DNA of 64,000 bases from an uncultured Bacteroides sp. GTDB taxonomy: Bacteria > Bacteroidota > Bacteroidia > Bacteroidales > SM23-62. The translations under genes were made by a program, and so were the position numbers. Shown piece by piece: positions 45,301 through 64,000 of the stretch; within the stretch, counting starts at the first letter, position 1, and each line of letters starts with the position of its first letter. The notes below the pieces were generated by a model, which was not told the DNA's origin, made no database searches, and worked only from the letters and a program-made list of their open reading frames with translations. The DNA lies in assembly GCA_964575235.1 (NCBI GenBank), contig CAZNQG010000001.1, positions 5,467 to 69,466 on the forward strand, written 5' to 3'.

Positions 45301-45431
45301 CTTTGGTTTAAATATGGTTTAAATATTTTTATGTTATTGTTTTATCCTTCAGTTTACTAATTTACCTTTCCAGTACTCCTGGGATCTATCATTACTTCAA
45401 TAAAGAATCACCTTAAACTTGACTACTGTAT

Positions 45432-45540: not shown

Positions 45541-45605
45541 CCCGTTTCGTGGCAAAAGAAATAATGCTTTGATTTGATGTATTCGCAACATCAAATCACA
45601 AGAAA

Positions 45606-47096: not shown

Positions 47097-47126
47097 TCTC
47101 AATAATAATCTATCAAAACCAAAAAT

Positions 47127-47801: not shown

Positions 47802-47803
47802 AG
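47775..47803 (+). repeat. RIT left terminal inverted repeat
   Basis: GATTATCCTAACTTTTTTATTATGTGAAG. Its reverse complement occurs at 51278-51306 as GATTATCCTACCTTTTTTTATTATGTGAAG. Confidence 0.8.
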
Positions 47804-47929
47804 CTGTTTTTTGAAGGATCCTATTAATCAATTACTTATAAATATCCCTTCATCATTTTGTTAGCATAATAATTTCCTTTATATCCTGGGCATAAGCCCT
47901 GATTAAAGGTATCACTAAACAAAATTATT

Positions 47930-49181
47930 ATGCAAAACAATTTCGATTACGAAGAAATTACCTCCAAGGTTTACAATTATCTTAAGGAGGAATTTTCCTA
48001 CAAGTATGTTACCCTTCGTCATTACAGAAGTCGATGGCTTCCCGTTAAAAAGTATATGGAGAAGCATGGGCTAAAATTCATTAACCCGGCAGTGTGTAAA
48101 GGCTTTTTAATCGAGTTTTATAATGGTCGAACTCATGAAGAATTAACTGAAAAAGAAAAATACATCGAGAAATCCGTTTCAGTACTTTCCGAGTATATGG
48201 TGACTGGTTCTGTACAACGGAGATGTAAGGTCAGGTATTTGGACGGTTCTATTGGTCATTTGATGAAGGATTTTATTGCACATAAGCGATCTCATCGTTT
48301 AAGAGTAACAACTCTTGCTAAGATAGAAAGCCACTTGAGCACTTTTAATTTCTGGCTTTCTACGAATGGCATTTGCAGTATTAATGATATCAAACACCAT
48401 CACATTATCACCTTTATTAAAAGCCTTGATCCACATAAAAAAGCTCTCATCCATGATACTTTGATAGATTTACGCGGGTTTTTCAAATTTCTTTATGAGA
48501 AAGGAGTTATTCCTTCCAATTTATCAACCTTTATTCCTAAGGATAATTATCAGAAACAGAATAAATTACCCGCTTATTATACGGAAGCGGAAATTGAAAA
48601 GCTCCTGAAATCGATTGACAGAGGAAATATTGTAGGAAAAAGGGATTATGCTATTTTGGTACTTGCCGCTTATCTCGGTTTGAGGGCATCCGATATCGCC
48701 CGTCTTCGGTTCGAGAACTTACACTGGGATCAGAATACGATCATTCTCAGGCAATACAAGACTGGTAAAAATATAACCCTTCCTTTGTTGCCGGTGGTTG
48801 GGAATGCACTCCTTGATTATATCCAATACGGGAGGCCCAAATCAGATGAACAGTATATTTTTTTTACTTGTGATATCTCCATTCCTTTCCATTCGTGCAC
48901 ATACCATTACTGGTATGATAAACCGAAGATTTTCCTATGCTGGATTTAAATCAACTAACAGGAGATATGGGGGGCATGCCCTCCGCCATAGTCTTGTTAA
49001 GGAATTACTTAACAATAAGCAGTCCCTTCCTGTAATAAGCGAAGTCCTCGGCCATAAAAACACAACTTCGACCCGGCATTATATAAGGATAGATACTGAA
49101 TCCCTTGGTCAATGCGCTTTGGATGTCCCTCTTGTTGACCCAGCATTTTACAACCAGGAAGGAGGTCTATTACTGTCATGA
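47930..49181 (+). pseudogene. RIT tyrosine recombinase 1 (RitA-like), interrupted by a +1 frameshift in a T8 run
   Basis: ORFs 47930..48949 and 48798..49181 are two halves of one gene. Removing one T from the T8 run at 48858-48865 gives ...SDEQYIFLLVISPFLSIRAHTITGMINRR...GGHALRHSLV...LGHKNTTSTRHYIRID (R..HxxR..Y catalytic set), 416 aa in total. Confidence 0.8.
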
Positions 49182-50170
49182 ACAGTAAATCATTCTGGAG
49201 TGTATTCGCTCCACACATCAGAGACTTTATTAGTCTTAAAAGAAGCCTCGGCTATAAATACCAAGTAGAAGAAAGAATCCTATATACCTTTGATCGATTT
49301 ATACTGGATCAGGGTCATACCAATCCCGGATTAACCAAAGAGATATCTGATAAATGGGCTGATGGACGCCATAATGAAGCTGAGCTGACCATTTATGGTA
49401 AAATTAAGGTAGTAAAACAGTTGGCGGAACACTTACGTGATCAGGGCATCAAAACCTTTGTTCCTCAATTACCCAAATATCCAGGCAACACATTTATCTC
49501 TTACATCTATTCCCATGAAGAGATAAACGCTATGTTCCGGGCCTGCGACAGTCTGAGGATGAAATGCAGGAATGTTTATTCCTGTCTTTTAATCATGCCC
49601 TGCCTGTTACGGTTACTTTATGGGACAGGTATTCGTATCAATGAGGCTCTATCGTTAAAGAATAAGGATGTAAATATTAATGGGAGATTCCTGACTTTAA
49701 AGGATACCAAAAACGGAAAAGACAGGTTAATACCCATGTCAAGTTCGCTTACCGTCGTCTTCAAAGACTATCTGAAACAACGAAATAAGCTTCCTCTCAA
49801 TGGCTTGAAACGTGAAAATGGGCCATTCTTTGTTTCCTTGAATGGTGGAGAATGTACACAAGGTGCTGTACATCGCTGGTTCCGGAAGGTGCTTGTATTG
49901 GCGGGAATCCCTTTTACGGGTAACAGAAAAGGACCCAGGATCCATGATATCCGCCATACCTTCGCCTGTCATTCTTTTTTGAAGCTTTCCGATGAAGGTG
50001 TGGACCTGTATTGTTCATGGCCTTACCTTTCGACTTATCTCGGGCATCAGTCGCTGGAATCCACTGAGCAATATATAAGATTGACCACACAAATGTATCC
50101 AGAACTGCTGAAAGATACCGACGGACTGTATGTAGATGTTCTCCCGGATATTCCAGCCAAAACTAAATGA
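49178..50170 (+). CDS. RIT tyrosine recombinase 2 (RitB-like)
   Basis: 330 aa with GIRINEALSL (Arg I), HDIRHTFACH (HxxR) and LGHQSLESTEQYIRL (Tyr). ATGA overlap with the upstream gene. Confidence 0.85.
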   Translation: MNSKSFWSVFAPHIRDFISLKRSLGYKYQVEERILYTFDRFILDQGHTNPGLTKEISDKWADGRHNEAELTIYGKIKVVKQLAEHLRDQGIKTFVPQLPKYPGNTFISYIYSHEEINAMFRACDSLRMKCRNVYSCLLIMPCLLRLLYGTGIRINEALSLKNKDVNINGRFLTLKDTKNGKDRLIPMSSSLTVVFKDYLKQRNKLPLNGLKRENGPFFVSLNGGECTQGAVHRWFRKVLVLAGIPFTGNRKGPRIHDIRHTFACHSFLKLSDEGVDLYCSWPYLSTYLGHQSLESTEQYIRLTTQMYPELLKDTDGLYVDVLPDIPAKTK

Positions 50171-51201
50171 CTGCCATGAAGCAAGTAAACGATTTTACCC
50201 GGTTACTGTCTGGCTTTCTGAACAACTATCTGCCTCATGAAAAGGGAGTTAGTGCAAATACGATAAAGTCATACAGTTATACGTTCATCCTCTTTATCAA
50301 ATTTATGCGTGAGAACAGGAACGTACCTGCTACAAAGTTATCATTCACTCATCTTAAAAAGGATTTGGTTGTTGGATTCCTTGATTGGCTCCAGAACGAT
50401 AGGGGCTGTGGTGAGGCTACTCGCAATCAACGATTAGCAGCTCTATCTTCATTTATAAAATATGCCGAATATATGAATCCTGGTCATTTATTTGACTGCC
50501 ATGAAATATTATCCATCCCTGCCAAAAAAACAGAAAGCAAAACACGTAATTATTTGAGTATTGACGGCATGAAACTGCTGTTGCAACAACCCAATACTCA
50601 ACAAACCAAAGGGCTCCGGGACCTTGCTCTGTTATCCTTAATGTACGAGAGTGCCGCTAGGGTCCAGGAAATTATTGATCTGACTCCTGCTTCCCTGTTC
50701 ATCGCTAACAAACCCTATAGGGTTATCCTGCATGGGAAGGGTAACAAATACAGGTCAATACCTCTTCCAGACAAGCAGGCAGAACTGCTAAGATTATATA
50801 TATCCCAGAATGGTCTTTTAAACAGGGAAAATGCGCAAAAATCCTTGTTCCCAAATTACCAGGGGCAGAAGATGACACGTAATGGTATTAATAATGTCCT
50901 GGTTAAATATTTAAAGATGGCTAACAAAAAAAATCCCTCTTTGGTACCTGATCATCTGAGTTGTCATTCCATAAGACATACCAAGGCTATGCACTTATTG
51001 GAATCTAAGGTTGAATTGATACATATAAGAGACTTCCTGGGTCATAAATCAGTATTGACTACCGAAACCTATGCTCGTATGAATCCTAAGTTTACTTTTG
51101 AAGCGGTGAAGAACGCGTATAAAAACATAACTGTTGATAATATACCAGCCTGGAAGGGTAATAATGAATTAATGGTAATGCTGAAAAACCTTGCTAAATG
51201 A
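50167..51201 (+). CDS. RIT tyrosine recombinase 3 (RitC-like)
   Basis: 344 aa with an N-terminal SAM-like core-binding domain, ARVQEIIDL (Arg I), HSIRHTKAMHLL and LGHKSVLTTETYARM. ATGA overlap with the upstream gene. Confidence 0.85.
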   Translation: MTAMKQVNDFTRLLSGFLNNYLPHEKGVSANTIKSYSYTFILFIKFMRENRNVPATKLSFTHLKKDLVVGFLDWLQNDRGCGEATRNQRLAALSSFIKYAEYMNPGHLFDCHEILSIPAKKTESKTRNYLSIDGMKLLLQQPNTQQTKGLRDLALLSLMYESAARVQEIIDLTPASLFIANKPYRVILHGKGNKYRSIPLPDKQAELLRLYISQNGLLNRENAQKSLFPNYQGQKMTRNGINNVLVKYLKMANKKNPSLVPDHLSCHSIRHTKAMHLLESKVELIHIRDFLGHKSVLTTETYARMNPKFTFEAVKNAYKNITVDNIPAWKGNNELMVMLKNLAK

Positions 51202-51277
51202 GGTAGAATATTATGCAAAGAGATTAATTGAATATGGACAGATAAGTAGATGGTTCACAGAACATACCGTTATAATA

Positions 51278-51306
51278 CTTCACATAATAAAAAAGGTAGG
51301 ATAATC
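51278..51306 (-). repeat. RIT right terminal inverted repeat
   Basis: CTTCACATAATAAAAAAAGGTAGGATAATC on the + strand, which is the reverse complement of the left IR. Confidence 0.8.
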
Positions 51307-51954
51307 GGCAACAGTTTTGTCGGAGATTATATCGTACCATTGCTCAACTGGGAACTGTGAGGTGATGATCGTTGACTTCTGATCATGCCTGTCCTCGATT
51401 ATTTCAAGGAATGAAAGCCTGCCCGGGCTGTCCAGTGATTGCAGGCCAAAGTCGTCGATAATCAGCAGATCCACTTTCGCCATCCTGGTTATTTCCTTCA
51501 GATAAGAACCATCCGCTTTCAGCATCTTCAGCTTTGACAGAAGCTTGGCCATGTTCTCATACAGCACCTTAAATTCTTTAATACAGGCCTGGTGACCAAG
51601 GGCCGAAGCTACAAAACTTTTACCCACACCGGTAGCACCGGTTATGATGATGTTTTCATTTCGACGGATAAAATCGCAGCTGGCAAAACGAAGGATCTGA
51701 TTCCTGTCCAGGTTTCGTTTATCATCGTAGGTCAGATCTTCAATACAGGCTTTATACCTGAACCTGGACATGCGAACCAGTCTTTCGATTTTCCTTGTGT
51801 GCCTTTCATCCATCTCGGCATCGAGCAGGTAGTTGATCATTTCATCCTGTGTGTAGTTCTGATTCCTGCCAGCCTCCAAGGTGGTCTCAAAGGCTCTGCA
51901 CATGCCAAAGAAGTTAAGATGCTTCATCTTTTCCAGTAAAACTTCACTTTCCAT
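51280..51954 (-). pseudogene. istB: IS21 helper ATPase IstB (element B), 3'-truncated at the same codon as IstB-A
   Basis: Contains GATGVGKSFVASALG and LLIIDDFG. The sequence ends ...SDKTVAD|YPTFFIM*, with the last 7 codons and the stop lying inside the RIT right IR. Confidence 0.8.
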
Positions 51955-51983
51955 AATTGTTGTTTGATTTGTTAGTATTTGGA

Positions 51984-53526
51984 TTATTTATAGTACTTGT
52001 TGCCCCTGATGTTCTTGTGACTTGGTAATGGATCCTGGGACTCATCGTCATCGATGAACTTATCCATGTTATTTTCCAGTATGTTCTTGATGATTGTGTA
52101 ATTGTGGGTTCCGTATTCAAGGGCTCTGCGACAGGCATTTTCCACCCTCATGCTCCCGACTTTGGTAACAAGCTGCAATACCCCCGAACACGAACGATAC
52201 GCTTTTGCCGGGTATTTGCTTTCTTCGAGGATTTGGGTGATAAACTGACTTGTGTAGACACCCACCTTTTCGGCATCTGCCAGTAAGTTCTCGGGGTTCA
52301 GATCAAGATAATGTTTCTGATTCTGGGTCAGATGTTCCGGGACAGTGGTATATGCATGCGGGGCTCTGTCCCTGTCATGAGAGGCTATCAGATCATAGTT
52401 GCTGTATATCTCAACGGTTGACTGAGTGTAAACAATTTTAACCTTGCTGCCGATGTAGTAATGCGGTACGCTGTAATAATGTTTATCCCTGGGCATGTAG
52501 ACATGACAATGCCGGTATACCGTTCCGACAGCGTACTCCTTCATCTGATAATAGCATGCCGGCAACGGTTTCAACAGGTTCTTTTCCATCTGTTCAAACA
52601 GATCCCACCGGCTGTATCTCTTGTTGGTCAAAGGCATTTTGTTGTGTTTATCCAGCTCCCGGAGGATCGCCAGGTTCAACTGTTCAAGGCTGTGGAAGGT
52701 CTGGGACTGCAGCGGAACGTATACTCGATGGTACAATATCTTGATTACTCCTTCTACCAGGGATTTGTCGCGGGGCTTACGGATCCGGGCGGGAAAAACA
52801 ATGGTATCATAATGATCGGCAAAATCGGCAAAAGCTTCATTGAGCTGAGGCTCGTATGGATTGGTTTTAGTAACGGCCGATTTAAGATTATCCGGGACGA
52901 TACTTTTGGGTACACCGTTATAGAAGTAAAGTGCGTTCTCAACGCATGAGATAAAGTCCTCCTTCTTCTGGCTCATCGCTGCCTCCATGTAAGTATATTG
53001 GCTGGCGCCCATGATTGCTACAAATACTTCCACGGCTGTCCTGTCGCCGGTTTTCTTATCAACGACATGAAGCTTCTTGCCTGCAAAATCCACGAACATG
53101 CTATCTCCGGCCTTATGGTTCATACGCATCGTCGGTGAACTGCTTTTCTTCCATTTATTGTAGTAATGGCAAAACTGTGTTCTCTGATAGCCTCCCGGAT
53201 TTCCTCTGATGTAGCGTTCCCATAGCTTTCCTTTGGTCATCCCTGGTTTCTTCAAATCCCGGTCATAAATCGGGAACAACTCCAATAATTGATTCAGCTT
53301 TGGGGGATTTTCATTGGTTCTCGATTCAAACATCTTCCAGCTGCTTATCACTCAGTCGCATGATCTCATCATAATCCAGACCACAGACACTGAAGTAATC
53401 CAGGTACTTGGTGACCGTGTTGCGGGAGACACCCAGCAGCGTACTGATAAACCTTTTACTCTTGCCAGAGTTGTGTAAACGCAAAATCCTTCTTGTTTCC
53501 ATAATTTCAAGTTTTTTGTTGGACAT
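51984..53526 (-). pseudogene. istA: IS21 family transposase IstA (element B), split by a frameshift between HTH and catalytic parts
   Basis: ORF 53326..53526 encodes the HTH part (ISTLLGVSRNTVTKYL ... LSDKQLEDV*). ORF 51984..53351 encodes the remainder (FESRTNENPPKLNQLLELFP..., DDE core). The two frames overlap at 53326-53351. Confidence 0.8.
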
Positions 53527-53619
53527 GATTTAGAGAATTGGTACATATATCTATACCATAAGCTCCAAATCGTTGCCTGGAAAACAGTAATAATTATTAA
53601 CTTGAATGACGGCTTGGCG

Positions 53620-53712
53620 GGTGGTTCAATTTGAACCGGAGAAGGTGGCTCAGTTTGCCCCGGACAGCTATGCTCAGTTACGAGCGGATTGAATGGCTCA
53701 GTTTATCCGAAA
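53620..53712. repeat. IS21-B end repeats (4 units of ~GGTGGCTCAGTTTnnCCGGA, ~24-nt period)
   Basis: The units are GGTGGTTCAATTTGAACCGGA (53620-), GGTGGCTCAGTTTGCCCCGGA (53644-), TATGCTCAGTTACGAGCGGA (53669-) and AATGGCTCAGTTTATCCGAAA (53692-). Confidence 0.6.
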
Positions 53713-53718
53713 TTTCCA

Positions 53719-54296
53719 CCTGGCAGCATGCCGATTTATCCCGGAAAAACAAAATGTCGTCTTTATGGGCAAGCCCGGTGTGGGCAAAACACACCTCGCG
53801 AATGCTTTGGGCTTGGAAGCAATCAAGAAAGGGTACAAAGTAATATTTACTCATGCCAATAGCCTGATCGATCAGCTTCACAGATCTAAAGCAGATGGAA
53901 AATACCAGAACGTTCTATCAAAGATTAGCCGAATCGATCTGTTGATCATCGATGAGCTGGGCTTCCGTAAAATCCCACAGAATGGAATGGATGACTTTTT
54001 TGAAATCATCCGCAGTAGATACGAAACCGGATCCATCATAATTACGACTAACCGAAACTTTGAAGACTGGGGATCATTGCTGGGTGATATGGTAATGGCA
54101 TCTGCAATTATCGATCGGATAGTTCATCATGCAGAAATCATTAAAATCATTGGAAATAGCTATAGAATAAGGAATTACGAGGAAAGATTAACTGATAACA
54201 ATTAAACTAATAGACAGACATAACAGATTTAATTCTATTTTTAAAGTGGCTCAATTTTATTGAGAAAAACTGGCTCAGAATTATTGATAGGTAACA
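53719..54296 (+). mobile_element. Right-hand remnant of a third IS21-family element (C): istB 3' portion plus right terminal repeats ending ...GGTAACA
   Basis: An istB fragment is followed by two TGGCTCA-type repeats (54245-54265 and 54269-54296). The terminus ends in CA at 54296. Confidence 0.65.
53720..54205 (+). pseudogene. istB: IstB fragment (Walker A to native C-terminus) of IS21-C
   Basis: Reads ...FIPEKQNVVFMGKPGVGKTHLANALG...LLIIDELGF...GDMVMASAIIDRIVHHAEIIKIIGNSYRIRNYEE. The N-terminal ~80 aa are missing. The ATG at 53693 in the ORF track lies inside the IS21-B end repeat. Confidence 0.75.
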
Positions 54297-54447
54297 TAAT
54301 CGCAGATACCATGAATCACTGAACAATCTTACACCCGCTGATGTCTACTTTGATCGGGACAAGGAGATCCTCAAAAAAAGGAAAGCAATTAAACAAAGGA
54401 CTATGATCCAGAGAAGAATGGATAACGATCTACGAAATGCAATTTGA
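54297..54447 (+). pseudogene. C-terminal tail of an rve (integrase-core, IS481/IS3-like) transposase gene
   Basis: Own translation: (H)NRRYHESLNNLTPADVYFDRDKEILKKRKAIKQRTMIQRRMDNDLRNAI*, with the stop at 54445-54447. This is the conserved rve C-terminal motif. Everything upstream has been replaced by the IS21-C end. Confidence 0.6.
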
Positions 54448-54455
54448 ATTAAAAA

Positions 54456-56128
54456 GGGACCTTCGTAAAATAGACTTGATTTCTAAAAATCCGGCTGGGT
54501 GATGGTTGAACTGGCCGGATTTTTTAGTTGCAAGCCATCGATTTTACGTTTTCCTCTTAATATGTGCATGATTTTGAAGTTCTTGTAGACACCTCTTCCA
54601 TCCAACCATCATTTGATCGGTCATCTTTAGCCCTATGCTGCTAAGTGAGGTAGTTTTTCTTGTGCCAGACGTTTTGAGATCCTGACAGCATTGGCTGTAT
54701 GGACGCCAAAGAAAATCCAGAGGATTTCATTCTTCTCGATCCTGGCTTTGATCTTGTCAAGGCTATAGTGTTGTTTCTCAGTACCAAAACTACCCTCCAT
54801 GCGAGTAACTCTTTCCTTACGCAACTCAGCTGCCAGGATAAGTCGCTGGTCTTCATATTTCCCTGCTCGACCTTTGCGTTTGAAGTCGGTAGCAATATCG
54901 CGCCCAGTGCACCATTTCCGGTTGGCATTGTTGGCATAGATGTCATCGGCAGCTATATGCGTAATCTTCCCAAACAAGGACCGGCTGTACCAAATGGAGT
55001 CAATCAGCCTGGGGCCTTCGTTGAAGGCATCAAAGCTTAGGTGCTCAATGAAGTTGATTCCATCCACCTGGATCATATTTACTTTGGCTCCGAACTCTAC
55101 TTTCTTTACCTCTTTGCCACGGACAATAGGTCGAACATAACTCTTTGCGATAGAGACGATCCTGTCCGGAATAGAGTGGGAGCCTGTGGTGAACATCTCC
55201 TTCTGTTGCCTGAGTACCTTGAGGATCACCCTGCGTCGCTGATAATACTTTTCAGGGAACTGAAGGTAGGCGCGGTGTCTGTCTTCGATCTTCTTCTGTT
55301 CATCGATCAGTTTCTCCAGGAGGTAAAGTAAACTTCGGGTCCGTTTGGTAGTCTGCTTCCAGGGCTTCTTACGCATACGCATATAGGAAAAATACTTGTC
55401 TTTCTGATCCAGGTACTTGGTCCTGGGTGTGGGGATCTTCAGATACTTGCAGGTTCGCTTCATTTGCCCATGCATCCAGTCAACACACTCCCACAGAAGC
55501 TTAACGTTGGTCGGGAAGCGGATGTAACTCTCGTAGCAGGTGGCGTCCTCCAATATAATGTTTGTTTGCTCCAGGTATGGCTTCCAGGATTTGGCCAATA
55601 CAGACTGGACTTCCCGGATATTCAACTTCCTGGCAAGCTCTGTCCGGATCCGGCTGATCACCTTAAAATCTATCAGTTTATCCGTGCCCAGGAAGATTCC
55701 GCAGAATATCTGCCACTGGATGTTCCCGTTGAGTTGTTCATAAAGCAGTCGATCCGACATGCCACTATAGGACTTCAGGAACATCAAGGCCAATTTACCC
55801 CGAGGACTGAACAATGACTTGCGACCTGAACGGTTCTCCTTTAATTTCAAGGATTTGATCAGTTGATCCCAGGGGATGGACTGATAGACTTTGCCAAGTT
55901 CTGATTCCAGAAAGCGGTTCCAGTATAGTGAAAATTCCTGCTGTGGGGAAATAAATGAAATCTCTTGGGTAGATTCGAAAATTCGGTGTAAATTGTTCAT
56001 GTAATTTGAAGATTTACCCCGATTTCTTGCCTGCAGAGCTGATTTCGGGGTTTTTCTTTAAATTACAAAAAATATAACTCTTTAACAATCAAAGTTTTAA
56101 ACAGGTTTTCGACATTCGCGAAGGTCCC
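54456..56128 (-). mobile_element. IS4/IS5-superfamily insertion sequence (IS5/IS1182-like)
   Basis: The terminal IRs GGGACCTTCG(T/C)(A/G)AA lie at 54456-54469 and, as reverse complement, at 56115-56128. They enclose a single transposase gene. The flanks are A-runs, so a target-site duplication cannot be resolved. Confidence 0.7.
54633..56000 (-). CDS. DDE transposase (DUF772 N-terminal domain + DDE_Tnp_1-type catalytic domain)
   Basis: 455 aa with SLFSPRGKLALMFLKSYSGMSDRLLYEQL (InsH-N/DUF772-like), EDATCYES, RGKEVKKVEFGAKV, AADDIYANNANR and ERVTRMEGSFGTEKQHY. The exact family assignment is uncertain. Confidence 0.85.
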   Translation of the reverse strand: MNNLHRIFESTQEISFISPQQEFSLYWNRFLESELGKVYQSIPWDQLIKSLKLKENRSGRKSLFSPRGKLALMFLKSYSGMSDRLLYEQLNGNIQWQIFCGIFLGTDKLIDFKVISRIRTELARKLNIREVQSVLAKSWKPYLEQTNIILEDATCYESYIRFPTNVKLLWECVDWMHGQMKRTCKYLKIPTPRTKYLDQKDKYFSYMRMRKKPWKQTTKRTRSLLYLLEKLIDEQKKIEDRHRAYLQFPEKYYQRRRVILKVLRQQKEMFTTGSHSIPDRIVSIAKSYVRPIVRGKEVKKVEFGAKVNMIQVDGINFIEHLSFDAFNEGPRLIDSIWYSRSLFGKITHIAADDIYANNANRKWCTGRDIATDFKRKGRAGKYEDQRLILAAELRKERVTRMEGSFGTEKQHYSLDKIKARIEKNEILWIFFGVHTANAVRISKRLAQEKLPHLAA

Positions 56129-56215
56129 TAAAAAAACTGTCTCTTAACTTTATGTTCCCTGATGTCCGAGTTTTGATGAAGTCAAACAAATGTGCTTGGC
56201 TGTGCGGGCTGATAT

Positions 56216-57688
56216 TTATTCATATTTATAAATTCTTTCGACTACAAGTTTTGAACTAATCACTGCCATTGGCAAACCTGCTCCCGGTATTGTTGAAGCC
56301 CCAACATAAAAAGTATTTGAAAATTTTTCGTCATAATTCTTAGGTCTGAATGCTCCAATTTGCATCATACTATGAGACAATCCGAGACCTGCACCTTTAT
56401 ATAAGTTAAACTGATTTTGCCAGTCTTCAGGTGTATATTCCATTTGAAATACAATATCTTTTGAAATATCCTGATGGATTCTTATAGAAAAATCATCGAT
56501 TATACTTTTAATAATCTCTTGTTTATCTGACCAATCAATTTTGAATAGCAGATTTGGAACAGGGCATACAAAAAACAAGGCTTCGCAACCTTCCGGCGCA
56601 CAATCGGGATTGTGTTTCGATACTACATTTACATAATAATAAGGTTTTTCAAGAGTCCCTGGATTTTTCATCACATCTTTGGCATATTCTTCATAATTGT
56701 TGCCCAAAAAGTAGTTGTGGTGTTCTATTTGATTGAGTTTCTTATTTATGCCTACATAAAATGTCAAATAGCCCATTGTCCAACTCATTTTCGCAAGTTT
56801 CTTTGGAGCATATTTTCTTCGTTTAAAAACAATACCTCTAAAAAATGCGGCATCGGCATTTATTACAAAAATATCAGCTTTCCATGTTTTGCCAGTTTGG
56901 TCTGTCAGGAAATCTAATTTTCCGTTGCTACTTTTGTAATCTTTAATTTCAGTTTCGTAATTAAAAGTAGCCCCGAGTTTAAGTAATTCATTTACAAGGC
57001 TAGTAACAATAGTATACATGCCACCTTTTACATTGTAATATCCTGTATGCTTAAACTCAATATGTGAAAGTAAAGTGTAAACAGCATTGGTGTCAAAAGG
57101 AGTCCTGCCCAAGAAGAAAGCTATTAAAGAAACAATTTGCTTTACTTCTTTCGATTCAAAATAAAAATTTACCTGTTTCCAGAAGCTTTTTAATAATACA
57201 GGAAGGTGAATAGGGTTTACCTGCATTAAAGCTATCAGATAAGCAGGAATGCTGTTAAAATTTTGTTTTATTGCTATATCAACCGTGTCATTGTATAACT
57301 GCTCACACTTTTTTAGATATGCTGTAATTTTTTTTTTAAAATCAGGCTCAATCCCATCAAACTGTTCGCTCAATTTGACAATATCTTTGTAAAGCGAAAA
57401 TTTCTTATCACTACCCCTGAAATTTACCGCGTATAAAGGGTCAAGTTCAACAAATTCAAAAGGCATATCAATTCCACAATCTTTTAACAGTTCCTCAAAC
57501 TCATAAGGCATGCTAAAAAAACTTGGGCCAACATCAAAAGTAAAGCCTTCTTTTTTCAGTTGGTTTAGCCTGCCTCCTGCCTGTTTGTTTTTCTCAACAA
57601 AAGTAACTTTATAACCACGTGAAGCTAACCTTAATCCAGTTGAGAGTCCTCCTAGCCCTGTTCCTACTATCAATACAGTTTTATTCAT
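56216..57688 (-). CDS. crtI: Phytoene desaturase family protein
   Basis: 490 aa with an N-terminal FAD fold (VLIVGTGLGGLSTGLRLASRGYKVTFVEKNKQAGGR) and a C-terminal YVGASTIPGAGLPMAVISS. Confidence 0.9.
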   Translation of the reverse strand: MNKTVLIVGTGLGGLSTGLRLASRGYKVTFVEKNKQAGGRLNQLKKEGFTFDVGPSFFSMPYEFEELLKDCGIDMPFEFVELDPLYAVNFRGSDKKFSLYKDIVKLSEQFDGIEPDFKKKITAYLKKCEQLYNDTVDIAIKQNFNSIPAYLIALMQVNPIHLPVLLKSFWKQVNFYFESKEVKQIVSLIAFFLGRTPFDTNAVYTLLSHIEFKHTGYYNVKGGMYTIVTSLVNELLKLGATFNYETEIKDYKSSNGKLDFLTDQTGKTWKADIFVINADAAFFRGIVFKRRKYAPKKLAKMSWTMGYLTFYVGINKKLNQIEHHNYFLGNNYEEYAKDVMKNPGTLEKPYYYVNVVSKHNPDCAPEGCEALFFVCPVPNLLFKIDWSDKQEIIKSIIDDFSIRIHQDISKDIVFQMEYTPEDWQNQFNLYKGAGLGLSHSMMQIGAFRPKNYDEKFSNTFYVGASTIPGAGLPMAVISSKLVVERIYKYE

Positions 57689-58409
57689 CGTTCAGTTGTT
57701 TTTGTATTTTCGGATAAAGCTTATTCTTTACCCAATCAAATTCGGGTTCAATGGCTAATGTTTTTATACAATACTTTTCAGCCAATTCAAACTTCCCTAT
57801 TTCATAATAGGCATTTATTATGGTAGCTAATAAGTTTAAATAGTTCCAGTTGCCCTTTAACGAAGCAAGATTTTTTTCCATGAGTTCAAGGGCTTTTAAA
57901 TAATATTGCATGGCATCTGTTTTTGAACCGCCAAACATTGCAGGTGTATAAAATGCTATGTTTCCTAACTGAACATATCCAAAATAATTTGTACCGTCTA
58001 AGGATACTGATTTTTTTGCATAAGCTAAACTTTCCTGTCCAAGAAAAGGTGCTTTATATGGCGATAAACCAATTTTGAAACCAACAAATGCCGATTTATA
58101 TGCATTTATCATCGACATACCATATTGTTGTTTTTCCAGCTCAACAAGAAGATTTTCTGCTGCTTGAAGATATTTTTCGGCTTCGTCATCTTTATCCTGG
58201 TCAATGCAGTATGCCATATAGCCATATTGACAATTAATTAAATCTAATTTTTGTGCATTTGTAGATGCTTTATAGGAATCCATGTGCTTTTCCCAATCAG
58301 CCATATTCCCACTTACATAAGCCTTGTAAATTATTGTGTTTGTTTGGCCGAAAACCGAAACAAGCATTGTAATAAATATAGCTATGAGTATATATTTCTT
58401 TCTTTCCAT
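57681..58409 (-). CDS. Hypothetical secreted helical-repeat (TPR-like) protein embedded in the carotenoid operon
   Basis: Signal peptide ILIAIFITMLVSVFGQ and TPR-like helices (AMQYYLKALELMEKN, KFELAEKYCIKTLAIEPEF). The ORF overlaps crtI by 8 nt and the GT2 gene by 28 nt. Confidence 0.55.
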   Translation of the reverse strand: MERKKYILIAIFITMLVSVFGQTNTIIYKAYVSGNMADWEKHMDSYKASTNAQKLDLINCQYGYMAYCIDQDKDDEAEKYLQAAENLLVELEKQQYGMSMINAYKSAFVGFKIGLSPYKAPFLGQESLAYAKKSVSLDGTNYFGYVQLGNIAFYTPAMFGGSKTDAMQYYLKALELMEKNLASLKGNWNYLNLLATIINAYYEIGKFELAEKYCIKTLAIEPEFDWVKNKLYPKIQKQLNDE

Positions 58410-59473
58410 TCAAGTTTTGTGTGTTTTCTAATTAATAAAGCTTTCCCCATAATTGTGATAAAAAAAATTAAATGAAGGGGGAACAAAAGTATATTTAAGA
58501 GGATGTTTTGTTTGCTAACAGAAGAATAAAGCGATAGAATAAGAACCAAAGTTACAAAGTAAAATACCAGGTATTGAGGCAAGGCAACTAAAACAGGAAT
58601 AAAACTAAATGCGGAAAAACTCCAAAACAAAAAAGCAAAAACAGGCATGTTCCCAAAAAACATAAATACGTTTTTAGAAAATCCATTTCCAGCCTCTTTG
58701 TAAGTTTTGTACATTCTGCATTGAATTCGTTTTTCACCGGTTAAACAAGCAACTCTGATTTTTTCTTTTTTTAATAAACGGGCAATTGCAATATCTTCTA
58801 TAGCTGAATTTTTAAACAGTTGATGAGGCTGTATTTTTTTATAGGCTTCACCATCGAATAGCATGAATTGACCGTTTGCAGCAGCATGCGATTTAAATGG
58901 TGAAATCCTGACAAATATTAGTGGTAGAAGTGTTAAAAGAATATAGTTCATTAAAGGAACAGAAATTTTCTCGCTAAAAGTTTTTTGTAATTGGACTGGA
59001 AAAACAGATAATAATTTCAAATTAAACCTTTTTAAATAACCAACTGCATCGGGTATAAAACCTTCTTCAATTCTTACATCTGCATCAAGAAATAAAAAGT
59101 ATTTGCCACTTGCTTTTTGTGCCAGTTTAAAACAAGCATGGTTTTTGCCTAACCAGCCTTTGGGTAGGCCATCAGATTGTATCAAAACAATTCTTTTATC
59201 TTGCTTTGCAAAATCCTGCACCACTTTTGCTGTGCTATCGGTTGACTCATCATCAAAAACAATAATTTCAATGTTTTCGTTTCTTGATTTTTGTAAATCG
59301 GAAAGTAGAAATGAAATATTCGTTTCTTCATTTCTGGCCGGTATTAATACAGAAATATGTTCGTTAGTTGGTGCGGAAGAAATTTTGATTTTTTGTTTAA
59401 AAACCAGGTTTAAAACAACATTAATTAGTTGTATTCCCAAAAATAAAAACGATATGCAGGCAAGATATAACAT
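58382..59473 (-). CDS. Glycosyltransferase family 2 (CruC-like carotenoid glycosyltransferase candidate)
   Basis: ISVLIPARNEE, VFDDESTDST, LFLDADV (DxD) and multiple C-terminal TM helices. The carotenoid operon context supports the role. Confidence 0.8.
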   Translation of the reverse strand: MLYLACISFLFLGIQLINVVLNLVFKQKIKISSAPTNEHISVLIPARNEETNISFLLSDLQKSRNENIEIIVFDDESTDSTAKVVQDFAKQDKRIVLIQSDGLPKGWLGKNHACFKLAQKASGKYFLFLDADVRIEEGFIPDAVGYLKRFNLKLLSVFPVQLQKTFSEKISVPLMNYILLTLLPLIFVRISPFKSHAAANGQFMLFDGEAYKKIQPHQLFKNSAIEDIAIARLLKKEKIRVACLTGEKRIQCRMYKTYKEAGNGFSKNVFMFFGNMPVFAFLFWSFSAFSFIPVLVALPQYLVFYFVTLVLILSLYSSVSKQNILLNILLFPLHLIFFITIMGKALLIRKHTKLEWKERNIYS

Positions 59474-60093
59474 TACGATATTTTTGCTTTTTGTGAGTTA
59501 AGAACCTGCCTGAAGAAACCGTTATATTCCGTTTCTAAATCTGACTGTTGGATGTCTTTAGCTAAAAATGGTTTGATATAGATATATAGGTTTGGCTTGC
59601 TATCGGAAAAGTAATCAACTAGGTTTGCAACAAATATTATTTGAGTCTCTGGCGAAACATTTTGGATAATTCTTTCGACTCCCTTTTCAAAATGTACAAT
59701 ATCATTATGCATTGAGTGTATTTGTCCCTGCGGAAACATTAAAACCAAATTTTCAGGCTGTTGTAATAGCTCTATGCTATAATTGAGGCTTTCGATTATG
59801 TTTCGTGATTTCTTTTTTATTGAATATCCACCTGAATACTGAAAGTACCAATGTTTTTCTAGCTGTTCTTCAAGCATCATAAAATGAAATTTACGGTAGA
59901 TTTTTTCTTTGTTAAGATATTCAACCCAAAAACCATCCCACCAACTAACATGGTGGGCAATTACCAATACAGGTTTTCCATTGTCGGCAAACTCACCATT
60001 GATACATACAGAATTAAAATTTCGATTGATTAAGAAACGGCTTAACCATTGAAACATTGGATATATTACCTTATGATGTTTTGCCTTAATCAT
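59473..60093 (-). CDS. Lysophospholipid acyltransferase family protein (CruD-like carotenoid-glycoside acyltransferase candidate)
   Basis: HHVSWWDG (HX4D acyltransferase motif). The start is taken at ATG 60093 (MIKAKHH) because the ORF-track start at 60138 is TTG and would overlap the upstream gene by 43 nt. Its stop overlaps the GT2 start (TAATG). Confidence 0.7.
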   Translation of the reverse strand: MIKAKHHKVIYPMFQWLSRFLINRNFNSVCINGEFADNGKPVLVIAHHVSWWDGFWVEYLNKEKIYRKFHFMMLEEQLEKHWYFQYSGGYSIKKKSRNIIESLNYSIELLQQPENLVLMFPQGQIHSMHNDIVHFEKGVERIIQNVSPETQIIFVANLVDYFSDSKPNLYIYIKPFLAKDIQQSDLETEYNGFFRQVLNSQKAKIS

Positions 60094-60095
60094 GT

Positions 60096-60743
60096 TTACA
60101 GTAATAAAGTTAACAAAGCAAAAAACACAAACTGGCAAATAAAAAGAATAGCAGACAAAGGGTTCTTGGTCTCTATTTTAAAAATCTTGAAAAGCAATAC
60201 AAAACAAAAAGCTATTGCATACCAGGCAATATAATTCCTGATAGGAACTTCCGAATTCTGCCATGTCCACATATTCATTTTTGGCGCTACCTGCTCAAGA
60301 ACAATATCATATACAAGCATTAATGCAGGAGCAACAAACACGGCAAGCCATTTATTTCCTTTTAAAGAATCGGTTATTGCTGTAGCCGTGTATGTTAAAA
60401 ACAACCAGTTAATACCAATCATTAAAGGTGTTTCAAACATTTTTAACCCTAAGGCATTGCCATAAGTATAAATTCCAAAAATCAATCCTGTTTTTACACC
60501 AATAACTTCAATTACATATCCTGAAATAAAAATTAATAGAAATATCAGAACATCTTTTAAAGCATATTTTTTATGATAAATTGCTAAAAGATAAGAATTA
60601 AGCAGCAAGGCAAATGGGGTAATAACAATAAAAAATTCTTTTGAAAAAGGAATGATAAATCCTAAAAGCCCAACAAGGTAAAAGATAACAATAAACTTCT
60701 TTACATCGGCAATTGGTATTTTGTTTTTAGGATATAATTCCAT
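60096..60743 (-). CDS. Carotenoid biosynthesis membrane protein (PF04240/DUF422, CruF-like 1',2'-hydratase family)
   Basis: 215-aa polytopic protein with GYVIEVIGVKTGLIFGIYTYG and ETPLMIGINW, a typical pattern for this family. Confidence 0.75.
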   Translation of the reverse strand: MELYPKNKIPIADVKKFIVIFYLVGLLGFIIPFSKEFFIVITPFALLLNSYLLAIYHKKYALKDVLIFLLIFISGYVIEVIGVKTGLIFGIYTYGNALGLKMFETPLMIGINWLFLTYTATAITDSLKGNKWLAVFVAPALMLVYDIVLEQVAPKMNMWTWQNSEVPIRNYIAWYAIAFCFVLLFKIFKIETKNPLSAILFICQFVFFALLTLLL

Positions 60744-60754
60744 TTTTTGAAAGT

Positions 60755-61289
60755 CTATTTATTATGCTCAATCCACAAGAGGTTTGAGGTATGAAAACCC
60801 AATTTTTCAGCTTTTTCCAAATATTCTTATTTGATAGCATCAGGTATGGTCTTTTCCCTTGATAGTATCCACAAGTAGTCAAAACTCGCTCCACATACCA
60901 AAGCGTATTTGTATTCTGTATCAATGGCTATAACATTATAACCTGAATAGAACGGGCCAAAAAATGATACTTTTAACATAGCAATTGTATCGACTCCCAC
61001 GAATTTTGCTTTGCCAATGGCCTCTTTCCATTCTTTTTGTTCATAATCGTAACCACGGTTAGTTACTTTTATTTTGCCATCATTGCGTAAGGTGTATTCT
61101 GCAGTTGTATTGTTCAATCCTTTTTCGAATTTAAAATCGAAACGGGCAATCTCATACCATGTTACCTAAATAGTCTTCCTTCTTAAAAGGCGAAACTGCT
61201 GTAATACTTTTTGGTATTGATGAGCAGGAACATAATGAAACAATCATAGCTGCTGCAATTAAATTGAAAATGTTTTTTGAGAAATTCAT
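60755..61289 (-). pseudogene. Bacterial lipocalin (Blc-like outer-membrane lipoprotein) gene with a frameshift and an in-frame stop
   Basis: Own translation: MNFSKNIFNLIAAAMIVSLCSCSS...PFKKEDYLGN then a frame break at 61157-61166 (GGTAACATGG, where GGTACATGG would give G-T-W-Y-E). Translation resumes as WYEIARFDFKFEKGL...VSFFGPFYSGYNVIAID...YLWILSREKTIPDAIK. An in-frame TAA at 60827-60829 is followed by EYLEKAEKLGFHTSNLLWIEHNK*, which still aligns to the Blc C-terminus. Confidence 0.75.
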
Positions 61290-61301
61290 ATTTTTTATGG
61301 T

Positions 61302-61832
61302 TTACTTAAAGCTAAAATTTTGAACGTCAGATAGAACACGGTCAATGATTTTTTTAAACCATACCGTGTAATTTTCAGGATTTTTTTGAATTTGTTCTAA
61401 AAGTCTGTCACTTTTAACATATTCAAAATCACACACCTCTGTTGGTTCGGGAATTGGCAAATCATCAGTAAAGCCAACAAAAACATGGTCAAACTCATAT
61501 TCTGTTAAGCCGTTTTCAAATTCTTCTTTATAAATAAAGTCAAATAGTTTGGTGAGTTTTACGTGCTTTATGCCCATTTCTTCATTCAGCCTTCTTACTA
61601 CTGCGTTTTCATTGCTCTCATTTGGTTTGGGATGCGTGCAGGCAGTATTTGTCCATAACCCAGGTGAATGATATTTGCTTTCGGCTCTTCTCTGAAGCAG
61701 GAGTTTCCCCTGCGAGTTAAAAATAAAAACAGAAACAGCCCTATGCAGTTGTGCTTTCTGGTGTGCTTCGAGTTTTTCCATTTCTCCAACTACAGTATCA
61801 TTGCTATCTACAAGTATTACTTTTTCAGTCAT
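61302..61832 (-). CDS. idi: Isopentenyl-diphosphate delta-isomerase, type 1 (Nudix)
   Basis: LHRAVSVFIFNSQGKLLLQRRAESKYHSPGLWTNTACTHP and EYEFDHVFVG. Confidence 0.9.
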   Translation of the reverse strand: MTEKVILVDSNDTVVGEMEKLEAHQKAQLHRAVSVFIFNSQGKLLLQRRAESKYHSPGLWTNTACTHPKPNESNENAVVRRLNEEMGIKHVKLTKLFDFIYKEEFENGLTEYEFDHVFVGFTDDLPIPEPTEVCDFEYVKSDRLLEQIQKNPENYTVWFKKIIDRVLSDVQNFSFK

Positions 61833-62675
61833 TTAAATAAGTTTAGTTTTATACAAAAAGGCTACTTGTAGTATTATCAAGTACTTTTGAAAATTCGGAA
61901 CCCTCATTCGTTTTTTAAGGACTTTTTCAGGTGAGGTTCTTTTTATTCTAAGAAATAAGCTTTTGTAATAATAAAAAGCCAGGGCAACAGCCAATTTCGA
62001 CCTTCCGGGTAATTGTTTTAGCCCTATCCATGCTTCATCAAAATCTTTTTGTATCGATTCTTCAATTAATTGTTTTGTTTGCTGATTAAATGTGCTGTTT
62101 GATATATCGGGAAAATAACTTCTGCCTAAATTATTCATGTCATCTTTTAAATCTCTTAGAAAATTCACTTTCTGAAACGCAGAACCTAATTTTTGGGCAG
62201 GATGTTTTAACCTTTCAAACAACCCATTTTCTCCATTGCAAAACACTTTTAAGCACATCAATCCAACCACATCGGCCGAACCATAAACGTATATGTCAAA
62301 ATCTTTTGAAGTAGTATATTTCGTTCTTGACAAATCATTTTCCATGCTTTTCATAAACGACTGAATATGCTCAATGCTTATATTATATGCTTTCACGGTG
62401 TCGGCAAACGCTGTGAGAATGGTGTTGGTACTAATGCCATTTTTCAAAGCATAATCAAGATCTTCATTTAATTTAGCCAGTAAAAAGGCTTTATCATATC
62501 CATGAAAACTATCTACAATTTCATCGGCAAGGCGTACAAATCCATAAATAGCATAAATAGCCCGTTTTTTATACTTTTCCAATAACGATGTCGCCAAGGA
62601 AAACGAAGTGCTGTATTCTTTAGTAATCAGCTTCGATATTTTGTAACTATTTTCTATGTAAAAATCAATGTTCAT
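61833..62675 (-). CDS. crtB: Phytoene (or related squalene/phytoene family) synthase
   Basis: 280 aa with YGFVRLADEIVD (DxxxD motif 1) and YGSADVVGLM...; FLRDLKDD (motif 2). It directly abuts the idi start. Confidence 0.9.
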   Translation of the reverse strand: MNIDFYIENSYKISKLITKEYSTSFSLATSLLEKYKKRAIYAIYGFVRLADEIVDSFHGYDKAFLLAKLNEDLDYALKNGISTNTILTAFADTVKAYNISIEHIQSFMKSMENDLSRTKYTTSKDFDIYVYGSADVVGLMCLKVFCNGENGLFERLKHPAQKLGSAFQKVNFLRDLKDDMNNLGRSYFPDISNSTFNQQTKQLIEESIQKDFDEAWIGLKQLPGRSKLAVALAFYYYKSLFLRIKRTSPEKVLKKRMRVPNFQKYLIILQVAFLYKTKLI

Positions 62676-62946
62676 TTATTAGTCGAGCGTATAATGTATT
62701 TTTCAAATATCTAACTGTGTATTAATTATTTCTTTTTAAAACTGTAAAATACAACAAAATTCTGTTTAGATTTGAGCGTTGGTAAAAATTGCACTCTTTT
62801 GCAAAATTTGGTTTGTGGGTCAGTAACTTAGCTGAAACTTTCTCTTCATTTTCGTTCATTTTTATTCATAGTTGTTTTATAAACAATTTCATAAAACATT
62901 GATAATCAATATATTAGAATGAAATCAAAAGAATAGCTATGAAGAT

Positions 62947-62968
62947 GTTCGAATCCATTATCACCCAC
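62947..62968 (+). repeat. Imperfect direct repeat of the tRNA-Val 3' end (attR-like island boundary)
   Basis: GTTCGAATCCATTATCACCCAC compared with tRNA positions 45233-45254, GTTCGAATCCAGTATCGCCCAC. 20 of 22 positions are identical and the orientation is the same. Confidence 0.5.
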
Positions 62969-63058
62969 AATGAAGGAGAAGGAGTTAGGTTAAAACGGTC
63001 TGATTCCTTTTTTAATGCACTTGAAGGATTACCAAAATATTGAGGTGATAAATTTTAT

Positions 63059-64000
63059 CTATTGATTGTTAGAAAGAGATATCTTTTCTGTCCGGCAAAC
63101 ATGATCGTTACGGACACGAACACAATATAATCCATTATCCAGGGAGGTCATATCAATCGTAATTGAGTTTCCGTATTCCGGGATGTCAGACTCCAGCATC
63201 CTGGCCCCCTGGAGTGAGAATATTTCAGCTTTCATAGCGTCCTGCACCGGTTCATTGAATTGAATTATAATTTTCCCTGAACAGGGATTCGGATATATAT
63301 TAAAATCGAGGGTGTAATTATTTATAATGTTCGAAGGTTGAGTGGGATTTCTTCCCACCGTATCCATCTCGCTTAAAGGAACAAACTTGTAATCAAGAAG
63401 ATGTTCCTGAGTATATTGCGTCAAAATCACGGCATAATTATGCTCGTCCGTGAAGGTTCCCACCATGCCCGAAGCGATAAACCGAATGCTGTCCTCCATG
63501 GAATATTCTATATTAATATCGGTACGATCACCGGCAATGCAATAAACCGGTATCCCTTTGTTTTTAACTTTTTGCAGTTCCGGGTACACTTCGTCGAAAA
63601 AGTTGGAGGAGCTTAAATTCTTTGAGCTTGCGGCCACGGAATCTTTCAGGTGTGCCAGGTCTGGATTATCAGCCATCCATAGTATTCTGTGATGAATGAG
63701 GACTAAATAATCCGAGTTCTGTATGGTATCTGCCACGGTTTTGATTAAATCAAGCTGTAAACCGGAGATATCGGGTGTGGAAAGTTCTGTGTCCAATACA
63801 ATAAAGGTGATATTATTTCTGCTAAAACCGTAGAACCTCTCTTTTTGGGTAAATGAAAGAAGAAGGGGTACATTATCAATATCGTGGTTTCCTATGGCCA
63901 GATGAGTGTTCGTATCGCTGAGACTGAAAATGCCATCGCAATATTCCAGTGTGCCGACCAGTTCCGAGGTATTCCAGGTTAAATCTCCTCCCAGCAGGAG
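63059..64000 (-). CDS. Calcineurin-like metallophosphoesterase with T9SS C-terminal sorting domain (gene runs off the right edge)
   Basis: The reading frame stays open upstream of the ORF-track start, which is a TTG at 63796. My translation of 63797-64000 gives LLLGGDLTWN...LAIGNHDIDN (GD / GNHD phosphoesterase motifs). The C-terminal ~80 aa (NIYPNPCSGKIIIQF...GLYCVRVRN...) look like a Por_Secre_tail domain. Confidence 0.75.
   Translation of the reverse strand, partial: LLLGGDLTWNTSELVGTLEYCDGIFSLSDTNTHLAIGNHDIDNVPLLLSFTQKERFYGFSRNNITFIVLDTELSTPDISGLQLDLIKTVADTIQNSDYLVLIHHRILWMADNPDLAHLKDSVAASSKNLSSSNFFDEVYPELQKVKNKGIPVYCIAGDRTDINIEYSMEDSIRFIASGMVGTFTDEHNYAVILTQYTQEHLLDYKFVPLSEMDTVGRNPTQPSNIINNYTLDFNIYPNPCSGKIIIQFNEPVQDAMKAEIFSLQGARMLESDIPEYGNSITIDMTSLDNGLYCVRVRNDHVCRTEKISLSNNQ

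Follow-up and report, generated by a model that had tools for sequence, protein, structure and literature searches.

A compact gene cassette for a putative acylated carotenoid glycoside on a tRNA-Val island in Bacteroidales

The conversion of carotenoids into acylated glycosides is known enzymology, described for the CruF/CruC/CruD glycoside-ester pathways of Chlorobi and Ignavibacteria, Rhodothermus and Salinibacter. The salinixanthin-type cluster of Rhodothermus marinus and Salinibacter ruber consists of an operon with cruF-crtB, a hypothetical gene, cruD and crtI, to which cruC, crtY and crtO are added, and deletion of cruF in R. marinus leaves lycopene, while both the glycosyl and the acyl decoration are lost (PMC7414004). 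In green sulfur bacteria and Ignavibacterium the same logic of 1'-hydroxylation, glycosylation and fatty-acyl esterification is applied to monocyclic or aromatic substrates, yielding OH-chlorobactene glucoside laurate in the former case, and deoxyflexixanthin and 1-OH-torulene derivatives in the latter; Ignavibacterium album possesses crtB, crtI, cruF, cruC and cruD, together with crtD, crtY and crtW, and its carotenoids are thought to include glycoside fatty-acyl esters (PMC3362086). The staphyloxanthin operon crtOPQMN is likewise compact and combines a synthase, a CrtI-family desaturase, a family-2 glycosyltransferase (GT2) and an acyltransferase to make an acylated carotenoid glycoside, but there the backbone is C30 and glucose is placed on a carboxyl group generated by CrtP/AldH. 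Acyclic C40 carotenoids that are hydroxylated at C-1 and glycosylated are exemplified by the dihydroxylycopene diglucoside diesters of Halorhodospira, which are also acylated, and by the rhodopin glucoside of purple bacteria; the latter use the CrtC hydratase family and not PF04240. Here we analyze a 64-kb stretch of DNA from an uncultured Bacteroides sp. (GenBank assembly GCA_964575235.1, contig CAZNQG010000001.1, positions 5,467 to 69,466 of the forward strand), termed here "the window", whose numbering is used for its coordinates throughout. It contains an operon that probably arrived by horizontal transfer, as a self-contained cassette whose predicted product is a polar carotenoid glycolipid.

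The operon comprises eight co-directional reading frames on the minus strand, running from 62675 down to 56216. An earlier note on this DNA, made from the letters alone, had listed eight tightly packed genes; their order, identities and coordinates are confirmed by open reading frame (ORF) calls and by scoring against Pfam and NCBIfam (18,950 models), and the profile searches it had proposed (PF04240, GT2 and PlsC) all returned matches. Motifs were read in the ORF translations. In the order of transcription the genes are:

61833-62675, minus strand: crtB, phytoene synthase-like, 280 aa (PF00494, 155 bits)
61302-61832, minus strand: idi, type 1 isopentenyl-diphosphate isomerase, 176 aa (NF002995, 172.4 against a cut-off of 127; TIGR02150, 132.4 against 105.8)
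60755-61289, minus strand: blc, lipocalin lipoprotein pseudogene (PF08212; NF007786 Blc, E 3e-40)
60096-60743, minus strand: CruF-like membrane protein, 215 aa (PF04240, 84.8 bits against a cut-off of 25)
59473-60093, minus strand: PlsC-type acyltransferase with an HX4D motif, 206 aa from ATG (PF01553, 35.7 bits against a cut-off of 23)
58382-59473, minus strand: GT2, CruC/CruG-like, 363 aa (PF00535, 77 bits)
57681-58409, minus strand: exported all-alpha protein resembling tetratricopeptide repeat (TPR) proteins, 242 aa (weak TPR Pfam matches only)
56216-57688, minus strand: crtI-family phytoene desaturase, 490 aa (TIGR02734, 349.6 bits against a cut-off of 238.1)

The junctions are as tight as had been claimed: crtB and idi abut with zero gap, idi and blc are separated by 12 nt, blc and cruF by 11 nt, and cruF and the acyltransferase gene by 2 nt (counted from the ATG of the 206-aa Logan gene call, L001; the ORF itself runs on to a TTG at 60138), while the last three junctions are overlaps of 1 nt (acyltransferase/GT2), 28 nt (GT2/TPR) and 8 nt (TPR/crtI). 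The operon is also AT-rich relative to the host part of the window, with 32.8% GC and a GC content at third codon positions (GC3) of 0.24-0.31, against 54.2% GC in positions 1-45000 and a GC3 of 0.65-0.71 in the housekeeping genes located there. All gene lengths match those of orthologues in other genomes, and the seven enzyme or accessory genes other than blc are of full length with intact motifs.

With the R. marinus and S. ruber cluster the operon shares the grouping of a CruF hydratase, a GT2 and a PlsC-type acyltransferase with crtB and crtI. It differs in that cruF and crtB are separate genes, that the GT2 gene lies within the operon, that cyclase and ketolase are missing (hence an acyclic product is predicted), and that a lipocalin and an exported protein resembling the haemophore HusA are added; its Bacteroidales carriers also contrast with the aerobic thermophile or halophile that harbors the described cluster. 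With Ignavibacterium there is a link at the level of the phylum, as the same gene order occurs in an Ignavibacteria metagenome-assembled genome (MAG).

Individually, most of the enzymes are divergent members of their families. CrtB retains both Asp-rich motifs, DEIVD and DLKDD (DxxxD twice), but falls below all NCBIfam CrtB equivalog cut-offs (106.7 against 550, 62.4 against 480, and 53.8 against 500). The solved structures closest to it are CrtM enzymes, and this, together with the lack of a geranylgeranyl diphosphate (GGPP) synthase gene in the operon and the presence of a GT2 plus an acyltransferase, as in crtOPQMN, could be taken to indicate a C30 (4,4'-diapocarotenoid) glycolipid pathway of the staphyloxanthin type, in which the synthase would act as CrtM on farnesyl diphosphate and the desaturase as CrtN. 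We find this very unlikely. In the alignment to CrtM structures the window protein has Thr at the position of Phe26 of Staphylococcus aureus CrtM, and the six cassette orthologues have Thr, Ser or Val, while among the aligned C30 synthases Phe is found in wild-type CrtM 8is6 and in 5iys; 3ae0, an S. aureus entry, has Ala and is presumably the engineered F26A mutant of CrtM. According to the mutational literature, C40 products become accessible when the side chain at this site is small. Moreover, instead of a CrtP-type oxidase or an aldehyde dehydrogenase that would provide the carboxyl group, the operon encodes a CruF hydratase, and the related cluster of I. album is tied to C40 pigments (PMC3362086).

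The desaturase displays the GxGxxG motif and is 60-88% identical to its cassette orthologues. It scores below the NCBIfam equivalog cut-offs for CrtD and for CrtID (345.6 against 640); we rejected the assignment to CrtID, a haloarchaeal family (PMC11946383), at about half of the required score. In the CruF-like protein the PF04240 match spans residues 46-192, and the only NCBIfam models matched are the three for CruF (TIGR03460, NF041333 and NF045693), all below cut-off (62.3 against 154.7, 36.3 against 300, and 23.6 against 400), which marks it as part of a divergent subfamily. To our knowledge, all characterized members of PF04240 are carotenoid 1,2-hydratases. The GT2 has the DXD-type motifs FDDESTD and LDAD and a membrane-spanning C-terminus; its top match among all NCBIfam models is CruG (carotenoid 2'-O-glycosyltransferase; E 6.7e-31, full-length alignment), at a score of 107.6, far under the cut-off of 600, and a 74%-identical homolog from Paludibacter has been deposited under the name CruC. 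The acyltransferase carries the HX4D motif as HVSWWD, and its 800 homologs are annotated in generic terms only. NCBIfam contains no CruC or CruD model. We also considered a squalene/hopanoid pathway, given matches to the HpnD and HpnB models, and rejected it: there is only one synthase, the HpnE match is limited to the N-terminal FAD motif, and CruF is present.

Taken as a pathway, these families outline the following route. Idi would balance isopentenyl and dimethylallyl diphosphate, and CrtB is predicted to join two molecules of GGPP into phytoene; the operon lacks the GGPP synthase gene crtE, so GGPP would have to come from a host prenyl synthase encoded elsewhere. The single CrtI-family desaturase would then produce an acyclic polyene of the lycopene type, the CruF-like protein would hydrate its terminal 1,2 double bond to a tertiary 1-hydroxyl (rhodopin-type), the GT2 would glycosylate this hydroxyl, and the HX4D acyltransferase, in a role like that of CruD, would esterify the sugar with a fatty acid. 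A hydroxylated, glycosylated and fatty-acylated C40 carotenoid, which the earlier note had predicted, is thus supported by family homology, by the conservation of the cassette and by the Thr residue of CrtB, insofar as sequences can indicate a product. This product class is known from other bacteria, among them those with the Halorhodospira and purple-bacterial carotenoids described above. According to established enzyme chemistry the hydroxyl oxygen derives from water, so the route should be able to run without O2, which would suit anaerobic Bacteroidales.

In order to place the operon among its relatives, we used a scan of species-representative genomes plus look-ups of exact proteins. Where individual copies have to be distinguished we use labels, i.e. 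L002 for Balneicella halophila DSM 28579, L004 for the Bacteroidales MAG E05-024, L007 for the Ignavibacteria MAG and L011 for a Prolixibacteraceae MAG; other L numbers denote further copies. The order crtB-(idi)-(X)-cruF-acyltransferase-GT2-TPR-crtI, where X is a variable slot, is found in all 10 contexts examined, and the carriers include B. halophila, a Paludibacter sp., several MAGs of Bacteroidales, Rikenellaceae and Prolixibacteraceae, and the Ignavibacteria MAG. Amino acid identity to the window proteins is 64-88% in Balneicella and 42-60% in L007. The flanks differ in every genome and consist of ordinary chromosomal genes, and in Balneicella, the Paludibacter sp. and other relatives the GC content of the cassette equals that of the flanks. 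The exception is L004, in which the cassette (9004-13112) has 41.6% GC and the left flank (1-9003, with a P-type ATPase and a FAD/FeS oxidase) 53.3%; no mobile genes were found in the portion examined, and this copy may stem from a separate transfer, the second besides that in the window, into a Bacteroidales genome of higher GC content. At the DNA level, the homology to Balneicella and Paludibacter (76-79% identity) covers exactly 56206 to 62676/62823, and these bounds indicate that the operon and about 150 bp upstream of it moved as a unit.

The variable slot, located between crtB/idi and cruF, reveals a division among the cassettes. In L005, L006 and L011 it holds a CrtZ-like di-iron hydroxylase and a CrtYcd-type lycopene cyclase; in the window, L002, L003 and L013 it holds the lipocalin; and in L004, L007 and L012 it is empty. 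In L011 a single 449-aa ORF (5945-7294) fuses the CrtYcd-type cyclase to a CruF-like domain, which recalls the cruF-crtB fusion reported in Rhodothermus. We calculated a neighbor-joining tree from six concatenated proteins (1,693 gap-free columns), rooted on the Ignavibacteria copy, in which the cyclase-bearing and the cyclase-less cassettes separate into two clades with 100% bootstrap each, and the window copy nests within a low-GC, lipocalin-bearing group of Bacteroidales. The earlier statement that cyclase and hydroxylase are missing thus holds within the 64 kb, where tblastn detected no homolog of the CrtYcd-type cyclase, the CrtZ-like hydroxylase or photolyase, and the cyclase-less state appears to be real, as the whole clade of the window lacks both genes that its sister clade possesses. 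The default product would then be an acyclic 1-hydroxy-carotenoid glycoside ester.

It could nevertheless be argued that the cassette decorates only the psi-end, and that a cyclase (CrtY, CruA or CrtYcd), ketolase or hydroxylase encoded by the host outside the window makes the final pigment cyclic or otherwise modified, as in the glycoside esters of salinixanthin or deoxyflexixanthin. The same decoration enzymes do act on monocyclic gamma-carotene derivatives in R. marinus and I. album (PMC7414004, PMC3362086), the sister clade holds a cyclase and a CrtZ-like gene, and only 64 kb of the host genome are visible. We consider such a division of labor unlikely, as the window has no cyclase or hydroxylase homolog, the cyclase-less clade is coherent and compositionally native in several genomes, which suggests that the cassette works alone, and a host that acquired the pathway as an island need not own carotenoid genes.

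Some neighbors of the cassette in other genomes are of interest. A photolyase gene, found nearby also in R. marinus, adjoins it in L002 and L005 (14549-15844), a pyrimidine-dimer DNA glycosylase in L012 (4785-5216), and a glutathione peroxidase in L002, where the stress-related genes lie at 541-2339. Genes related to photodamage and oxidative stress stand out in lineages regarded as anaerobes, and their adjacency points to a role of the pigment in light or oxidative stress. Pigment data for Bacteroidales are sparse in the literature, and among the papers of the library searched none names both CruF and Bacteroidales.

In the window itself the cassette is found in a very different genomic setting. 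The GC-rich part encodes AlaRS, MurF, FolC, PorU and GldJ, and the latter two identify the host as a member of Bacteroidota with a type IX secretion (T9SS)/gliding apparatus. Between this part and the operon, and just beyond the operon, lie the following features:

45179-45255, plus strand: tRNA-Val(TAC), whose 3' end (45233-45254) is the attL-like copy of a repeat (ARAGORN; Rfam RF00005, 75.5 bits)
45606-47801, plus strand: insertion sequence (IS) element A of the IS21 family, with IstA (45606-47096) and IstB (47127-47801) (Pfam rve/Mu-transpos_C_2 and IstB_IS21)
47930-51201, plus strand: three tandem tyrosine recombinases (47930-48949, 49178-50170 and 50167-51201; Pfam Phage_integrase in all three)
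51280-53351, minus strand: IS21-family element B, with IstB (51280-51954) and IstA (51984-53351), in inverted orientation to A (Pfam)
53693-54205, plus strand: N-terminally truncated IstB fragment (Pfam IstB_IS21, profile positions 82-235 of 238)
54633-56000, minus strand: IS1182/IS5-like DDE transposase (Pfam DUF772 and DDE_Tnp_1_2)
62947-62968, plus strand: attR-like imperfect direct repeat of the 3' end of tRNA-Val, 20 of 22 positions identical (repeat search)

The attR-like repeat lies 270 bp upstream of crtB, and no such match arose in 100 shuffles. The region between the repeats (approximately 45256-62968, 17.7 kb) contains the carotenoid operon as its sole cargo not related to mobility; the 3' end of the tRNA is directly repeated, and the enclosed DNA is foreign to the host in composition and phylogeny. 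This is most simply explained by an island of 17.7 kb that inserted at the tRNA-Val 3' end. We considered whether the repeat at 62947-62968 might instead be a fragment of a donor tRNA carried along with the cassette, and rejected this, since no tRNA lies close to any of six orthologous cassettes inspected in other genomes. The gene to the right of attR (63059-63979 and beyond) codes for a protein whose C-terminus carries a T9SS sorting domain, and it has 41% GC and a GC3 of 0.46, so the right flank may be another acquired segment. A search for the empty site, made by scanning metagenome contigs with exact patterns across attR and the right flank, gave no match, and a protein-guided metagenome scan with the flanking T9SS gene yielded one distant contig of 2.7 kb, without a tRNA.

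The mobile elements within the island appear to form layers. The two IS21 copies are in inverted orientation and about 74% identical (70-86% in patches), and they bracket the trio of XerC/D-like recombinases, the last two of which overlap by 4 nt; the arrangement is reminiscent of a recombinase-in-trio element lodged inside a composite IS structure. Separated from tRNA-Val by IS21, the recombinases look like a self-mobile trio rather than the integrase of the island. The orphan IstB ORF (53693-54205), which lacks istA, is a third, degraded IS21 copy, and several short direct repeats at 45430-45560 (CATTCCGG…TTGACCC), just upstream of istA, probably belong to the left end of IS21 as its multiple terminal repeats. 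The IS1182-like transposase adjoins the 3' end of the operon, where DNA homology to other cassettes stops at 56206. A plausible order of events is that the island first brought in the cassette, its sole cargo apart from mobility genes, and that the IS21 and IS1182 elements and the three-recombinase unit colonized it later.

An IS-rich zone separating two compositions, on a 78-kb contig that is probably derived from a metagenome, might also suggest that the GC-rich host and the AT-rich operon were joined by a chimeric assembly or binning at repeated IS sequences. This is extremely improbable. The far side of the operon carries a specific copy, 22 nt long, of the host's tRNA-Val 3' end, and the IS21 copies, at only about 74% identity, are not prone to collapse. 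Independent Logan contigs of run SRR14802572 match the window at 100% over 55873-60473 (the junction of crtI and IS1182) and over 61645-63979 (the junction of crtB, attR and the T9SS gene), and host and operon proteins are found in the same run. The description of the operon as part of a tRNA-flanked, IS-ridden island, offered before from the letters alone, is therefore accurate. The further proposal that it is a horizontally transferable cassette agrees with the tRNA repeat, the nested phylogeny and the GC mismatch as regards its acquisition, but it does not extend to present mobility: no recognizable tRNA-site integrase is found next to tRNA-Val, so "transferable" describes the past of the island rather than its present state, and the island may now be immobile.

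The lipocalin gene raises the question of whether the cassette is still functional. Alignment to intact orthologues, in particular the 176-aa protein of Balneicella, reveals two lesions in the window copy, one inserted nucleotide (+1) near 61163 and, at 60827-60829, a change of GAA to the stop codon TAA, and thereby verifies its earlier designation as a pseudogene. In L003 the lipocalin gene (9457-9939) has lost 2 nt close to its 3' end compared with Balneicella, resulting in an altered C-terminus and a length of 160 instead of 176 aa; blc thus seems to have been eroded independently in a second lineage. One might thus regard the cassette as silent or decaying cargo from which no pigment is made in this host. 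Apart from the two lesions in blc, the attR repeat has diverged at 2 of its 22 positions, the island has accumulated at least three IS elements and an IS remnant, the GC3 of the genes is extremely foreign to the host, crtE is not in the operon, and there is no upstream regulator. The Bacteroidetes promoter motif TAnnTTTG is not recognizable upstream of crtB, a sigma-70 promoter scan gave only background, and an Rfam scan of the window identified the tRNA alone and no regulatory RNA. Against this, the seven other genes have remained intact, and about 150 bp of native upstream region were transferred with crtB (homology to L013 reaches 62823). The state of blc says little about the remainder of the cassette, as the gene is dispensable: dead in the window, altered at the C-terminus in L003, and absent from L004, L007 and L012. 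We therefore think it quite unlikely that the operon is silent, and return to the reading that it is a self-contained biosynthetic cassette.

The product of the gene between GT2 and crtI had been described as a secreted protein without known function. Its export is corroborated by a signal peptide ending in VFG|Q, in which Gln22, directly after the cleavage site, is near-invariant among homologs; such a Gln is typical of signal peptidase I substrates in Bacteroidetes. Among its homologs, of which there are at least 187, none is functionally annotated. The gene occupies this position in 10 of 10 contexts, including the window, and its start overlaps the stop of GT2 out of frame by 25-28 nt in every cassette (58382-58409 in the window; L002-L007 and L011-L013). 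The protein starts with Met-Glu followed nearly always by Arg, a start that is essentially invariant across cassettes, probably due to the dual-coding stretch. An AlphaFold (AF2) model built from a 40-sequence alignment has 11 helices (predicted local distance difference test, pLDDT, 91.2; predicted TM-score, pTM, 0.86), and in a Foldseek search its top match by TM-score, designed TPR proteins aside, is the Porphyromonas gingivalis haemophore HusA (PDB 6bqs; TMq 0.57, TMt 0.67, root-mean-square deviation 4.6 Å, 191 columns, 17% identity), with similarity across most of the chain of the predicted model. HusA is also matched by sequence (phmmer E 0.006; profile E 5.9e-4 over about 115 residues).

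Both proteins are exported, all-helical, TPR-like and found in Bacteroidales, and HusA binds a large hydrophobic ligand; HusA, however, is encoded in a haem-uptake locus and the cassette protein in a biosynthetic operon. We regard the likeness as a lead rather than as evidence of membership: outside the cytoplasm, the exported protein may be a binding partner of the hydrophobic product, possibly along with Blc. Its gene is translationally coupled between GT2 and crtI. Hypothetically, the protein could bind or escort the product in the periplasm, with the outer-membrane lipocalin Blc, intact in relatives and dead here, as a dispensable partner in this step. It is a more doubtful suggestion that the HusA-like protein and, where present, Blc constitute an unrecognized trafficking branch by which the acylated carotenoid glycoside is extracted from the inner membrane and reaches the outer membrane or the cell surface. 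If this were true, the cassette would be a mobile, O2-independent "plug-in" envelope photoprotectant or antioxidant for anaerobic Bacteroidales, and this protein the first carrier known in bacteria to be dedicated to carotenoids in the periplasm.

Several observations weigh against our view of the operon as a self-contained, functional cassette for an acyclic carotenoid glycolipid, or limit its precision. The GT2, CruF-like protein, CrtB and acyltransferase lie far below the NCBIfam equivalog cut-offs, and the assignments of substrate and regiospecificity are therefore tentative; depending on the number of desaturation steps, the product could be based on neurosporene, lycopene or didehydrolycopene. 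The operon lacks crtE and would depend on GGPP from elsewhere. Expression may be poor, as blc is dead and the codon usage departs strongly from that of the host. Composition alone does not establish where the island ends on the right, since the DNA to the right of attR has 41% GC and not the host-like 54%. Finally, HusA is a modest match (17% identity, TM 0.57), and folds of the TPR type resemble a wide range of structures. With these points included, we still favor the acquired, self-contained cassette as the probable explanation.

The enzymology outlined above is familiar, as is the class of acyclic, 1-hydroxylated, glycosylated and acylated products to which the predicted pigment belongs. 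Particular to the present case are a cyclase-less and oxygenase-less clade of cassettes in Bacteroidales, a HusA-like exported protein, conserved in the cassette, that has so far gone without discussion, and a clear case in which a tRNA-Val island took the cassette into a compositionally very different host. The tight 6.5-kb unit occurs widely among Bacteroidales, both cultured and uncultured, and among Ignavibacteria, where it is apparently undescribed, and as a ready-made module it may lend itself to the heterologous production of acylated carotenoid glycosides. Its conserved HusA-like protein is a concrete candidate for the handling of carotenoids outside the cytoplasm. As the sole cargo of an island in a compositionally different host, the cassette provides direct evidence for the horizontal movement of polar-carotenoid biosynthesis within Bacteroidota, and its cyclase-less, oxygenase-less version would allow a membrane-anchoring pigment to be made independently of O2, which bears on how anaerobes cope with light and oxidative stress.

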